Part shown: positions 21,681 through 25,396 of the stretch, one piece after another
Numbering within the stretch: position 1 is the first letter of the stretch
Layout of the letters: every line of letters begins with the position of its first letter
Notes under the pieces: model-generated
Database searches by the model: none
The model's input: only the letters and a program-made list of their open reading frames with translations
What the model was told of the DNA's origin: nothing
Sequence record: OQ174503.1
Strand: one strand, 5' to 3'
From: Escherichia phage REP4
DNA length: 64,000 nt
Position numbers and translations under genes: made by a program

Positions 21681-21830
21681 TTACTGCATGACTGTGATAA
21701 CTGTCATGATAACACGTTGAATGCCGAACGCAAGAAGACCTCCTGCTACGGCTGGAACAACACCTAAACCCGCCAGTAAAATGCTACCAGATACTAATGC
21801 TGCGCTTGTAATACCAATGAATGGACTCAT
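21681..21830 (-). CDS. Hypothetical 49-aa hydrophobic peptide translationally coupled to gene 52 (not in ORF track)
   Basis: Manual translation MSPFIGITSAALVSGSILLAGLGVVPAVAGGLLAFGIQRVIMTVITVMQ; ATG overlaps gene 52 stop (ATGA). Confidence 0.5.
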   Translation of the reverse strand: MSPFIGITSAALVSGSILLAGLGVVPAVAGGLLAFGIQRVIMTVITVMQ

Positions 21831-23155
21831 TTGATTTCCTCTAAATCTTTAGTGTATTCTGTAACTACATCAGTAGTTTTCCAATATTCGTTTTCTTCTT
21901 TCTTAGCTTTAGCTTCTTCAGCAAGTTTCTTTGCTTCGTCGGAAGTCATATGAAAAATATTCATTCCGACTAGTTTATCAACATAAGAAGAATACATCTC
22001 AATTTTAGAAAGTTCTTCGGTCAGTTCTTTGCGAGTTTTACCCTGTACAACGATTTCACCTGAAATTACTTTCTTAATGAAATGTGCCTTGGCAAAGGCT
22101 AAACGAAATGCTGATTCAGTTTCTTTGATTTTGTTATCAATTCGTTTTTGGACATAAGTTTTACGAACTTCAACGAAGTCTTTAATTAAATCAACTACGT
22201 TATCGTAAACTTGTAACTTTCCTTTCTCGTTGATGACTGTAATATTTTGGGAACGACGCTCAATCAACCCGAAGTCTTTCATGATTTTTGCATGGCGTTC
22301 TTCTTCGTTATCGCTCAAAGAATATTCTTTGCGAAATTTAACTTTAAAGCCAAAACCATGCTCACCACAAGCATCATCCCATGTAATGAAGCCCTTATCT
22401 TCAAGCGGGTCTAAGATTTTACTCACATAAGTTTCACGATCATACTTATACGGAATCTCAGTGATATTCATTTGAGTTCGTGAAGTAAACTTGTACGTTC
22501 CACGAATTTCATATTGACCGTCAATTTCAACGACTTCACCACGAAATTCTGGGAATTCTACCTTCGGTTTAGTTACTTTCTTTCCTTGAAGAACTTGTAA
22601 TACAGCTTTCTTAACAGAAGAAACGCTATGAGGAAGAATGTAAGTTGCATAACCAGTTGCAATACCGGAAACACCATTAAGAAGAACAGTAGGAATAATA
22701 GGCAAATAGAAAGCAGGAGGAATGTGTTCTTTATCTTGATGTACCGGAGCATATTCAGTATCTTTATACACGCTATAGAAATTTTTACTTACACGAGCAA
22801 AAATATAACGACTTGCCGCTGCTTTTTGAACAGTACGAGAACCAAAGTTTCCTTGACCATCTAACAAAGGAAAGTTATTATTCCATGTGTTAGCCATCAA
22901 AGCCCCCGCATCTTGTGCAGAGTTTTCGCCATGATGATACCCAAGGTCAGCTACACCACCTGCAATAGAAGCAAGTTTGTGAAACTTATCTTTATTTCCC
23001 CGTGCCAAATCAAGAGCTCGAGCGATAACAAATCGTTGAACTGGCTTAAATCCATCAATCATATTTGGAATAGCACGATTTTCAACCGTGTACATAGCAT
23101 AAGCCAATGCTTCATTATCAATGATACTTTTTAAATCGCGATTATTCAGTTGCAT
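21827..23155 (-). CDS. 52: DNA topoisomerase II medium subunit gp52 (GyrA-like cleavage core), 442 aa
   Basis: ORF track; size identical to T4 gp52; N-terminus MQLNNRDLKSIIDNEALAYAMYTVENRAIPNMIDGFKPVQR. Confidence 0.95.
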   Translation of the reverse strand: MQLNNRDLKSIIDNEALAYAMYTVENRAIPNMIDGFKPVQRFVIARALDLARGNKDKFHKLASIAGGVADLGYHHGENSAQDAGALMANTWNNNFPLLDGQGNFGSRTVQKAAASRYIFARVSKNFYSVYKDTEYAPVHQDKEHIPPAFYLPIIPTVLLNGVSGIATGYATYILPHSVSSVKKAVLQVLQGKKVTKPKVEFPEFRGEVVEIDGQYEIRGTYKFTSRTQMNITEIPYKYDRETYVSKILDPLEDKGFITWDDACGEHGFGFKVKFRKEYSLSDNEEERHAKIMKDFGLIERRSQNITVINEKGKLQVYDNVVDLIKDFVEVRKTYVQKRIDNKIKETESAFRLAFAKAHFIKKVISGEIVVQGKTRKELTEELSKIEMYSSYVDKLVGMNIFHMTSDEAKKLAEEAKAKKEENEYWKTTDVVTEYTKDLEEIK

Positions 23156-23158
23156 AAA

Positions 23159-23299
23159 TTTACCATACTAGTGAATGTAGTGCCATAATAACATCAGAAA
23201 TGAAAAGCACGACTTGAATTAATCCGAACATTACTCCATAATATAGTGCTACCAATAAAGCAGCAAGGGCTAACGAGTAGCCCAAGATTTTCTTAATCA
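23159..23299 (-). CDS. Hypothetical 46-aa membrane peptide (MIKKILGYSLALAALLVALYYGVMFG...)
   Basis: Manual translation; one predicted TM helix; ATG embedded in stop region of the next small ORF. Confidence 0.45.
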
Positions 23300-23444
23300 T
23301 TTTTATCCAATAATTTAAATAGTGATAAAACTGCTACCATGCCTTGGGCTAAAGATTGTGAAAACACCGAAGTTTCTCCGGTTACTAATGTTCCGACAAA
23401 TACAAATGACCAGCAGAAAAAAGCTATACTATAAACAAATTTCA
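23292..23444 (-). CDS. Hypothetical 50-aa membrane peptide (MKFVYSIAFFCWSFVFVGTLVTG...LLDKND)
   Basis: Manual translation; RBS GAGGAAATT; TM helix. Confidence 0.45.
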
Positions 23445-23473
23445 TAATTTCCTCATTATTAAATATAGGATTT

Positions 23474-23635
23474 CTTAATCATTTTTAATCATCTTAAGTA
23501 AACCGACAAAAGTAGAAAGAACCCAGCCAATAAACAGAAAACTTAAGAATATCGGACCAGGGGTCCATACGCCTAAAAAGAAGCAAACCGAACAGACTAT
23601 AGCCATAATAAGTTCAATAAAAATTAGGATAATCA
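23474..23635 (-). CDS. Hypothetical 53-aa membrane peptide (MIILIFIELIMAIVCSVCFFLGVWTPG...MIKND)
   Basis: Manual translation; RBS GAGGAAAAT; two hydrophobic segments. Confidence 0.45.
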
Positions 23636-23646
23636 TATTTTCCTCA

Positions 23647-23724
23647 TTAGCGTCCGAAGACGCCTTTAGTTTTAAGATTGTTACGATAGAACTGCATTAC
23701 ATGTTCGTTATGGAAATTACTCAT
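23647..23724 (-). CDS. stp: Stp peptide (suppressor of three-prime phosphatase; restriction alleviation and PrrC activator), 25 aa
   Basis: Manual translation [25 protein letters not shown] matches T4 Stp; ATG overlaps ndd stop (TAATG). Confidence 0.75.
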
Positions 23725-24179
23725 TAGTATGCCTGCAAAACAAATTTAAAGTTATCAGCCAACATACGGTTCATTTCTTCAAGTGTTTGATACTCAGAAT
23801 GATGATTACGAGTAAACGCTAAAGCTAACTGACCTTTTCCAAATCCCGTCGTCAGAGGTTTCATCTTAGAAGCAGGTAGATAAAATACTGTGTATGGAAC
23901 ATTGTTATTTGCAATAGTACGCGCAAGCTGAGACCGACGCTGACGAATATGACTTAGAACTGCACTGAACCCTTGCTTAGAACGCTGATTACCTACATAA
24001 AATCGTGCAGATACACACGGACTATCAAATGGACCACCAAATTTGCTCACTAAAAAGTAAAATCCAGGGTTAGACAAAATGTCTTTATGCGGAGTTCCAA
24101 AAACCCATTCACCGCCCTTGATTGTACCAATAACAGTTGCGCCTGCATTATTCAGATCAGTAACAGTCATATATTTCAT
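23724..24179 (-). CDS. ndd: Nucleoid disruption protein Ndd, 151 aa
   Basis: ORF track 23724..24227 shortened to ATG at [25 protein letters not shown], matching T4 Ndd. Confidence 0.92.
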
Positions 24180-24239
24180 TTTAATTTCCTCTAAATTATT
24201 TTCTACTCCAAGGCCGCATGAATACATACGGCCGATAAA

Positions 24240-24455
24240 TTAATCGTCGCAATCGACGCTTAATTCCCAGAACTCTTCTACGGTATAAGTTTCAGTATCA
24301 TTTTCAATACAGAAACGTTCATTACTGTTATTTGCTAAAGTAGCGTTAACTGTCATTTTCTCGCTAGTGCTCTTAAGAGGTGAAATACGAATTAACTGAT
24401 CACCATTATCTAAACAGAAAATTTCACCAACTTTTACATCTTTAAAAATTTTCAT
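24240..24455 (-). CDS. Hypothetical 71-aa protein (ndd.x region)
   Basis: ORF track; ATG with RBS GAGGTGA. Confidence 0.6.
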   Translation of the reverse strand: MKIFKDVKVGEIFCLDNGDQLIRISPLKSTSEKMTVNATLANNSNERFCIENDTETYTVEEFWELSVDCDD

Positions 24456-24463
24456 AATTCACC

Positions 24464-24571
24464 TCAGGGAGTATAAAATCCAAATGCAGTTGTTGACCAT
24501 CCCATCCAATATGGGATATTTGCGCCAATGTAAAATACAAGAATATAAAACCAAATGCTTAGTAAATTCAT
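24464..24571 (-). CDS. Hypothetical 35-aa hydrophobic peptide (not in ORF track)
   Basis: Manual translation MNLLSIWFYILVFYIGANIPYWMGWSTTAFGFYTP; start overlaps upstream stop. Confidence 0.35.
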   Translation of the reverse strand: MNLLSIWFYILVFYIGANIPYWMGWSTTAFGFYTP

Positions 24572-24768
24572 TATTTTACACCATTCCAAATTGTTTCAAC
24601 CACAGATTTCAAACCATTTTGGTGAATATCCATTCCGACAACTGCCATCAAATAAATTCCAACTACAACTGAACCCAAGGCGAAAATCAGCATGAAAATG
24701 AATAAAGCTGGAAAAATATTATCGAAAAACCATTCCATAAATGTAAAAGCACTGCGTTTACGCTTCAT
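24571..24768 (-). CDS. Hypothetical 65-aa membrane protein
   Basis: ORF track 24571..24789 shortened to first ATG (MKRKRSAFTFMEW) with RBS GAGGAAAAT; one TM helix. Confidence 0.55.
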   Translation of the reverse strand: MKRKRSAFTFMEWFFDNIFPALFIFMLIFALGSVVVGIYLMAVVGMDIHQNGLKSVVETIWNGVK

Positions 24769-24775
24769 ATTTTCC

Positions 24776-24889
24776 TCACATAAATCCAAAGTAAGCGTTT
24801 AATACATCAATCATTAAAACGATTGGGAATATACTCAAAACTACTAGTATTATAACTACATTCCATATAGCTTTAACAATCTTTTTCAT
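24776..24889 (-). CDS. Hypothetical 37-aa membrane peptide (MKKIVKAIWNVVIILVVLSIFPIV...)
   Basis: ORF track 24776..25024 shortened; upstream part is translation of the early promoter repeat. Confidence 0.45.
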   Translation of the reverse strand: MKKIVKAIWNVVIILVVLSIFPIVLMIDVLNAYFGFM

Positions 24890-24917
24890 TTTCTGTTCCT
24901 CCGTAGTTGATAGAGTA

Positions 24918-24947
24918 ATAATACCACAGAGGAACAGTCTTGTAAAC
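24918..24947 (-). promoter_or_regulatory. Early promoter (GTTTAC, 18 nt, TATTAT)
   Basis: Minus-strand GTTTAC at 24942-24947. Confidence 0.6.
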
Positions 24948-25132
24948 AACTTTTTTAAAAATATTCGTAATAAATGTGAATACCAACTACTACTGCTGAA
25001 ACTTGCGCAACCCACCATGCACAAGCAATAAGTACAGAATTCAAAATTTTCATAATAACCTCATCACAAAAGTAAATGTTAAACAAATTAATGGAATACT
25101 AATTAACCAAACAAAACACCACCATAATGAAC

Positions 25133-25396
25133 TCATAGTTCAATCTCAGCGATTTTCATTTCATTACTATTAATAGCCGCTTTAAGACTATCTGAAAGAA
25201 TTACATTCCAGTGGTCATTCATATGACCATTAACTAAGCGTGTAATTTCTTCGGGAGTTGAAAAATAAGGCGTATCAGACTCCCAATGCGATAGTCCCAA
25301 GCGAGTATAAATCATACCTTCATCATCGCTAGAATATTCAACTGACACAAACTCATCAGTTATTTTATGTTTAGCGTAATAAAATTTAAATTTCAT
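25133..25396 (-). CDS. Hypothetical 87-aa protein
   Basis: ORF track start is TTG; ATG three codons downstream (MKFKFYYAKHK). Confidence 0.55.
   Translation of the reverse strand: MKFKFYYAKHKITDEFVSVEYSSDDEGMIYTRLGLSHWESDTPYFSTPEEITRLVNGHMNDHWNVILSDSLKAAINSNEMKIAEIEL

Follow-up and report, generated by a model that had tools for sequence, protein, structure and literature searches.

What has placed three tiny membrane-protein genes side by side, with the same junction sequence written twice, between gene 52 and ndd of a T4-like phage? The question concerns a 64,000-nucleotide (nt) stretch of Escherichia phage REP4 (OQ174503.1), here called the window, in which the region examined lies on the minus strand. 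The window belongs to Tequatrovirus, and over 17 kb it is about 94-96% identical to several T4-like coliphages with sequenced genomes; the locus is the known T4-type early-gene cluster ndd-stp-(ac slot)-52.1-52. An earlier note had listed three hydrophobic open reading frames (ORFs) of 46-53 amino acids (aa) and the 25-aa Stp peptide in this interval and had equated it with the T4 52/ac/stp/ndd interval. Both observations were borne out: the ORF listing contains strongly hydrophobic ORFs of 53, 50 and 46 aa (grand average of hydropathicity, GRAVY, 0.9-1.8), of which the 46-aa product is identical to T4 gp52.1 and the 50-aa product is an Ac homologue, and Stp was recognised by PF08133. The 53-aa and 50-aa ORFs are unrelated, intact and selected genes that have been stacked, and only the 52.1'/'stp material between them has decayed. 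Our favoured reading, to which we assign a probability of roughly 0.78, is that two alternative alleles of the slot are present in tandem, their modules having been stacked by recombination and the remnant between them deleted. The features of the slot, in the direction of the genes, are as follows.

23647-23724, minus strand: stp, 25 aa (PF08133, phrog_6763)
23633-23649, minus strand: 5' cassette boundary, copy 1, TAATGAGGAAAATATGA, with the real stp stop, a Shine-Dalgarno (SD) sequence and the start codon of the 53-aa ORF
23475-23636, minus strand: 53-aa ORF of a narrow T-even family (phrog_9347), ending in KND
23471-23487, minus strand: 3' cassette boundary, relic copy of TAAAAATGATTAAGAAA, in which the 53-aa ORF ends and the four initial codons of a lost 52.1 copy are kept
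23446-23474, minus strand: putative recombination scar of 29 nt between the cassettes, with the remainder of the 52.1-start relic, a filler and the stp-stop/SD relic
23442-23458, minus strand: 5' cassette boundary, copy 2, TAATGAGGAAATTATGA, with the stp-stop relic, the SD sequence GAGG and the start codon of the 50-aa ORF
23293-23445, minus strand: 50-aa ORF, T4 Ac homologue, ending in KND (phrog_2501, PF26944, BLASTP)
23289-23305, minus strand: 3' cassette boundary, working copy of TAAAAATGATTAAGAAA, with the end of the Ac homologue and the start of 52.1
23160-23300, minus strand: gene 52.1, 46 aa, hydrophobic (ORF listing; identity to T4 gp52.1, DUF7396, phrog_3595)

Exactly two copies of the 16-mer AAAAATGATTAAGAAA are present in the window, on its minus strand at 23289-23304 and 23471-23486; shuffling predicts 0.03 occurrences (two copies in 0 of 100 shuffles). 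The exact 3' boundary repeat measures 17 nt, with a spacing of 182 nt. The 46-aa ORF (MIKK...) genuinely starts at the first copy of this repeat. From the second copy starts a seven-codon stub, MIKKSYI* (23459-23482), followed by TAA TGA, so that the stub ends with three successive stop codons shortly before the GAGG of the Ac homologue. The note had already remarked on the two KND endings and the repeated junction, and had taken the second copy for a relic of the next ORF's start; this interpretation was correct, the relic being that of the 52.1 start. It overlooked a 5' boundary repeat, TAATGAGGAAA(A/T)TATGA, at 23633-23649 and 23442-23458, whose copies are identical at 16 of 17 positions and spaced 191 nt apart. 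The part shared by both cassettes, TAATGAGGAAAWTATGA, consists of the stp stop, a ribosome-binding site and a start codon, and a GAGG stands 5-7 nt upstream of the ATG in each. The 53-aa and 50-aa ORFs are thus cassettes bearing matching 5' and 3' boundaries.

The 29 nt between the cassettes comprise four 52.1 codons, a filler of 12 nt (TCCTATATTTAA, at 23459-23470) and the stop codon of stp together with a ribosome-binding site. This scar still supplies stop codons and a ribosome-binding site to the downstream gene. It is identical in three independent contigs, and neither scar nor filler was present in any of the single-cassette loci fetched. Tandem Repeats Finder revealed no true tandem array at the DNA level; all it picked up was a stutter of 10 nt, ATGATTAA(A/G)AA, within the tail of the 53-aa ORF. 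In this tail (23482-23495) the junction motif is stuttered as ATGATTAAAAATGATTAAGAAA, with a 10-nt period and 2.2 copies, which hints at slippage or an earlier junction event at this position. No Rfam match was obtained in 22800-24600, even at a permissive E-value; the repeats are therefore not explained by any known RNA element, and a non-coding regulatory region was rejected as an identity for the interval.

The three ORFs belong to three families: phrog_9347 (53 aa), phrog_2501 or Ac (50 aa), and phrog_3595/DUF7396 (46 aa). The 46-aa product has 100% amino acid identity to T4 gp52.1 and matched DUF7396 (PF24129) over residues 1-46 of 46 (E = 6.2e-23, 81.1 bits against a cut-off of 27). The 50-aa product matched phrog_2501 over residues 1-48 (E = 1.2e-22) and T4 Ac with 46% identity (BLASTP, E = 2e-11); PF26944 (Phage_T4_Ac) is precomputed for an identical product, and our local Pfam copy gave no match. 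The motif SVFSQxLAQGM is kept between the two proteins, and G35 of the 50-aa ORF, in the AQG motif, aligns with T4 G38. As in T4, the gene lies downstream of stp and directly upstream of 52.1, whose start it overlaps; the one change in position is the 53-aa cassette that intervenes between stp and this gene. The Ac family was found in 607 phage records by tblastn.

Ac is a non-essential membrane protein whose presence makes T-even infections sensitive to acridines. According to a 2025 preprint, expression of Ac sensitises E. coli to acriflavine, and a G38R change renders T4 acriflavine-resistant (bioRxiv 10.1101/2025.06.30.662393). By homology, the 50-aa protein should share this acridine effect.

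The other slot occupant matched phrog_9347 (E = 1.3e-26) and had no match in the local Pfam copy. Its family is narrow, with only seven 90%-identity clusters among 5.8 billion proteins and 74 phage records by tblastn, mostly Dhakavirus. It is easily missed: automatic gene calls on a contig identical to the window omit both stp and the 53-aa ORF, and a look-up of the exact 53-aa product found no record in the gene collection. The 53-aa gene is the only slot occupant in AugustSocin and in the Dhakavirus-like locus L011. The AugustSocin protein carries the label "acridine resistance protein", a name that appears to rest on position only. As an Ac homologue the 53-aa protein was rejected, since BLASTP aligned six residues in a different register (E = 0.13) and the PHROG family is another one. 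In Escherichia phage vB_EcoM_005 (P0003) the family member reaches 70 aa: with a changed junction to 52.1, its reading frame continues beyond the usual KND stop, possibly with disruption of 52.1.

We compared 29 related loci, which were fetched and onto which the reference proteins were mapped; a search with an alignment as query yielded 16 loci. With A for the 53-aa family and B for the Ac family, the following architectures were found.

stp-B-52.1: T4, RB32, UFV-AREG1 and many others
stp-A-52.1: AugustSocin (Bas38) and several Dhakavirus-like genomes (including L011/L012); KIT03 also has A only
stp-A-(first 14 codons of 52.1 + last 13-16 codons of stp)-B-52.1: Gaprivervirus DCP80, TH40 and EAWsc9
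stp-B'-(21 codons of 52.1 + 24 codons of stp)-A-52.1: Dhakavirus JS98
two B-type genes in tandem: Aplg8

As a rule the slot has a single occupant, a small hairpin protein of the inner membrane: Ac (about 50 aa) or the unrelated 53-aa protein. The two alleles have the short translation-signal boundaries described above in common. Two Ac-like places were found in 44 records. The longer scars of Gaprivervirus and Dhakavirus are leftovers of two stp-X-52.1 modules that were joined head to tail and trimmed in the middle, which points to recombination of modules followed by deletion and not to duplication in place followed by divergence. In JS98 the decayed second stp (L007 526-597) is 96% identical to T4 Stp residues 2-25, and the intact JS98 stp only 80%. 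The stp'-A-52.1 module of JS98 looks imported from a Tequatrovirus-type genome, and it shares the stp variant of the window, described below. In the literature on ac, gp52.1, Stp/PrrC and modular shuffling, we found no paper describing the slot polymorphism itself.

The cassettes and the backbone of the window have different closest relatives. For ndd, stp, 52.1 and gene 52, which form the backbone, identity is 95-99% to T4-like Tequatrovirus phages and only about 70-85% to Dhakavirus and Gaprivervirus. The nucleotide identity of the 53-aa cassette is highest to JS98 (97%), followed by DCP80 (94%); that of the 50-aa cassette is highest to DCP80/TH57 (89%), followed by RB32/UFV-AREG1 (78-81%) and T4 (64%). 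Because the cassettes are closer than the backbones to other genera, they have moved between genera. In addition, each cassette is closer to a single-copy relative in another phage than to its neighbour, indicating that two pre-existing alternative alleles were stacked.

The same comparison bears on the explanation that the note had proposed, namely that one membrane-protein gene was tandemly duplicated in this lineage and that the copies (53, 50 and perhaps 46 aa) diverged and are decaying. The similar lengths of the ORFs, the two-helix hairpins predicted for both, their common KND ending and the repeated boundaries all make this idea attractive. In AlphaFold2 models, the 53-aa protein has helices at 2-21 and 28-52 around a conserved GVWxP turn (predicted local distance difference test score, pLDDT, 74.5) and the 50-aa protein helices at 2-22 and 26-49 (pLDDT 81); such a predicted two-helix hairpin is, however, too generic a fold to signal homology. 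BLASTP found nothing meaningful between the two proteins, and a profile-profile comparison of the two families (hhalign, nine-member alignments) gave a probability of 0.7%, with only the last 11 columns, the C-terminal tail, aligned. Neither family matched 52.1 in such a comparison. The tail itself is imposed by the junction: AAT GAT TAA, encoding N-D-stop, overlaps ATG ATT AAG at the start of 52.1 by 8 nt, and a cassette that lies in another frame relative to the 52.1 ATG has a different tail (...AKQ in TH40, ...KGE in L022). The alignment of the ORFs, which the note had suggested as a check, thus returned no homology beyond this overlap.

A recent tandem gene duplication, or paralogous array, was rejected, as the adjacent copies are neither mutual closest relatives nor detectably homologous; each has a much closer single-copy relative in the slot elsewhere (97% and 89% nucleotide identity). 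Both ORFs are moreover intact and under purifying selection, and not decaying. Both families may still go back to a very ancient duplication, but the junction repeat would then record a different event. We therefore regard duplication as improbable, and for a recent event as largely refuted. Of the note's claim of a duplication-and-decay signature, the duplicated junction stands, as a signature of recombination; the ORFs as decaying copies of one gene do not, and what has decayed is the 52.1'/'stp remnant between the cassettes instead.

The reading frames are conserved among related phages; the note would have counted a lack of such conservation against its reading. By the Nei-Gojobori method, the ratio of non-synonymous to synonymous substitution rates (dN/dS) against diverged relatives was 0.15-0.35 for the 53-aa ORF, 0.12-0.24 for the 50-aa ORF and 0.09-0.35 for 52.1, these ranges covering the comparisons with enough divergence to be informative. 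All three frames are under purifying selection. Within 23290-23650, no minus-strand promoter-like site was found, and terminator-like hairpins occurred only inside coding sequence and not at cassette boundaries. The simplest interpretation is therefore that the cluster belongs to a single transcription unit from ndd to 52. The ndd stop overlaps the stp start (TAATG), and the 52.1 start, ATGATTAAG, overlaps the final codons of the upstream gene by 8 nt; 52.1 is thus placed for translational coupling through the ATGATTAA overlap.

Stp was identified with E = 2e-20 (PF08133; 72.1 bits against a cut-off of 25). Its residues 1-25 are identical to those of T4 Stp (25/25), and the N-proximal 18 residues needed for activity are thus kept. 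The terminal Gln of T4 Stp is lacking, codon 26 being TAA; this variant is linked to the 53-aa cassette also in L011 and in module 2 of JS98. Loss of the last residue should be tolerated, because a C-terminal deletion of eight codons lowers activity only moderately (PMC3014915). By inhibiting restriction enzymes of type Ic, Stp unmasks the anticodon nuclease PrrC (PMC1484252; PMC3014915).

When the whole interval was compared by megablast with 50,697 phage records, none covered 80% or more of it. Three contigs, each from a different sample and together from two assembly pipelines, nevertheless have the arrangement of the window, gap-free and colinear; their identities to the window are 100% over 811 nt, 99.6% over 1096 nt and 97.9% over 2969 nt. 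In the third contig (L027; Logan SRR27732517; window 21793-24761), the stretch from ndd to the end of the 50-aa ORF is identical to that of the window. The gene 52 of this contig carries 45 substitutions (3.4%), with three amino acid changes. This pattern places a probable recombination breakpoint at or just downstream of 52.1, and such mosaic identity is another footprint of recombination as well as an argument against an assembly artefact.

It could be supposed that only the Ac homologue and 52.1 are functional, and that the 53-aa ORF is a recent passenger without a role that is heading for deletion. Deletion has indeed acted on the interval, as the scar shows, one cassette suffices for most T-even phages, and automatic gene callers leave the 53-aa ORF uncalled. 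On the other hand, this ORF is intact and preceded by a strong GAGG site, and a contig whose gene 52 has diverged by 3.4% retains it with 100% conservation. The A-then-B stacking is kept in three diverged Gaprivervirus genomes, whose A copies differ mostly by synonymous changes (dN/dS 0.15-0.34). We consequently give the passenger explanation little credence. An assembly artefact, in which two co-occurring single-cassette variants were merged through their near-identical flanks, a situation prone to chimeras, is hardly credible, since the same arrangement with its unique 12-nt filler recurs in the three contigs, merging two single-cassette loci cannot produce a filler and scar that are absent from every such locus fetched, and tandems of this kind are known from phages that have been isolated and sequenced.

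The stacking of two alternative alleles may have proceeded as follows. Two stp-X-52.1 modules would have been joined in one of two ways: a tandem duplication with later exchange of an allele, or unequal recombination during co-infection by phages with different alleles. The 52.1'/'stp remnant between them would then have been deleted down to the 29-nt scar. It is likely that the four small genes share a transcript with ndd and 52, and that their translation begins at separate or coupled starts. Stp would act on type Ic restriction and PrrC. The 50-aa Ac homologue would enter the inner membrane and raise intracellular acridine, through a block of AcrAB-TolC efflux according to the current proposal, which a 2026 PNAS paper restates as an assumption (PMC13250531). 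The 53-aa protein and gp52.1 would form further membrane hairpins and may be additional inner-membrane effectors made early in infection.

Several points weigh against this scenario. No source of the filler TCCTATATTTAA was found in 52.1, stp or their relatives, and exact and degenerate patterns of the compact scar with filler had no match in phage genome records or IMG/VR contigs; the scar may be one of Gaprivervirus type after deletion, or it may have an independent origin. Distant homology among transmembrane proteins of 50 aa can elude profile methods. In the closest comparison of the 53-aa ORF, with JS98, one synonymous and four non-synonymous changes gave a dN/dS of 1.14, from too few changes to be informative. 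Most of the signal of purifying selection is older than the stacking, and one cassette could now be redundant. Translation of the 53-aa ORF and of 52.1 is suggested by conservation only. Finally, the block of AcrAB-TolC efflux by Ac has the standing of a proposal in a preprint (bioRxiv 10.1101/2025.06.30.662393).

More speculatively, and in our view doubtfully, the stp-52.1 slot might be a dedicated exchange site, in which the 17-nt translation-signal boundaries serve as portable anchors for swapping and stacking unrelated inner-membrane effectors across T-even genera. If so, Ac and the 53-aa protein would hit different targets in the host envelope (e.g. AcrAB-TolC and another transporter or defence component), and stacking would widen the hosts or conditions that the phage can handle. 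The retention of ac in T-even phages has been a puzzle for sixty years, because the gene seems only to cause acridine sensitivity, and the AcrAB-TolC proposal has reopened it. A second, unrelated slot occupant in about 74 phage records now provides natural single- and double-allele genotypes for tests of function. The locus also illustrates how the name "acridine resistance protein" was moved by position onto a non-homologous protein, and how routinely gene callers miss such ORFs. With regard to evolution, the loci suggest stepwise erosion of scars after module stacking, and recombination that apparently ran through translation signals and not through promoter-terminator cassettes.

The interval is flanked by two anchors.

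23724-24179, minus strand: ndd, nucleoid disruption protein, 151 aa, the upstream anchor (95-98% nucleotide identity to Tequatrovirus ndd)
21827-23155, minus strand: gene 52, topoisomerase II medium subunit, 442 aa, the downstream anchor (ORF listing)

The first 350 nt of gene 52 are 96% identical to T4, and the annotation is the same in T4 and relatives. The ORF listing prolongs ndd to 167 aa (start 24227); homology to T4 Ndd starts only at MKYMTV (24179), and an inverted repeat, GGCCGCATGAATACATACGGCC, lies just upstream of that point (about 24211-24232 in plus-strand numbering). In AugustSocin (L001 1-377), ndd is annotated in two parts directly upstream of stp and is apparently frameshifted or split. 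Further tiny hydrophobic ORFs occur on the minus strand at 24460-25140 and 21681-21830, among them ORFs of 72 aa (24571-24789), 82 aa (24776-25024) and 49 aa (21681-21830; the place of motA.1 in T4). These stretches fit the description of the region in T4 as a cluster of predicted membrane-protein genes. In other phages, an optional hydrophobic, Cys-rich ORF of 57 aa (MKALFVMGYLLV...CFERLCKMCGVYE) stands between ndd and stp and overlaps the stp start. It was seen in L002 377-550 (UFV-AREG1), L007 62-235 (JS98), L005, L012, L016 and L019, i.e. in some Tequatrovirus, Dhakavirus and Gaprivervirus, and is absent from the window and T4. Small membrane ORFs thus have a second site of insertion at the ndd-stp junction.

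Among known systems, the stp-ac-52.1 interval of T4 (NC_000866, 165209-165585) lies, like that of the window, between gene 52 and ndd, on the same strand, in the same order and with the same 8-nt stop/start overlap with 52.1. T4 has a single slot gene, whereas the window adds the unrelated 53-aa gene and the 29-nt scar, and its Stp is one residue shorter. A functional parallel may be drawn with AcrZ-type proteins, inner-membrane modulators of about 50 aa that act on the AcrB efflux pump. Like AcrZ, Ac is an inner-membrane protein of about 50 aa, and it is proposed to act on AcrAB-TolC; the likeness is one of description, and we claim no sequence relationship. AcrZ is a single transmembrane helix, in contrast to the hairpins predicted for Ac and the 53-aa protein.

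In the hyperplastic regions of T4-type genomes, small non-essential ORFs are gained, lost, swapped and stacked across lineages via short conserved flanks (Arbiol et al. 2010, PMC2839356; Comeau et al. 2014, PMC4122927). The shuffling of promoter-early stem-loop (PeSL) cassettes resembles what is seen in the slot in its modular exchange of small ORFs through short conserved flanking sequences. However, PeSLs consist of an early promoter and a terminator stem-loop, whereas the flanks in the window are 17-nt translation signals (stop, SD and start, or overlapping stop and start). PeSL shuffling was rejected as the system at work, because no sigma-70-like early promoter with a terminator stem-loop is found at the boundaries.

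The closest parallels are the loci of DCP80, TH40, EAWsc9 and JS98, which carry the same two cassette families between stp and 52.1 and a relic of the 52.1 5' end after the first cassette. The cassettes of DCP80 are the closest or near-closest relatives of those of the window (94% and 89% at the nucleotide level). The Gaprivervirus loci also share the A-then-B order, in contrast to the opposite order in JS98. All these loci differ from the window in scars that are about 75-145 nt longer, with recognisable 3' codons of stp, and in backbones of other genera, in which ndd is 69-73% identical to that of the window where fully aligned. The window thus shows a new arrangement of a known locus, in which the stacking of two alleles has precedents in sequenced Gaprivervirus and Dhakavirus phages and represents ordinary phage mosaicism.

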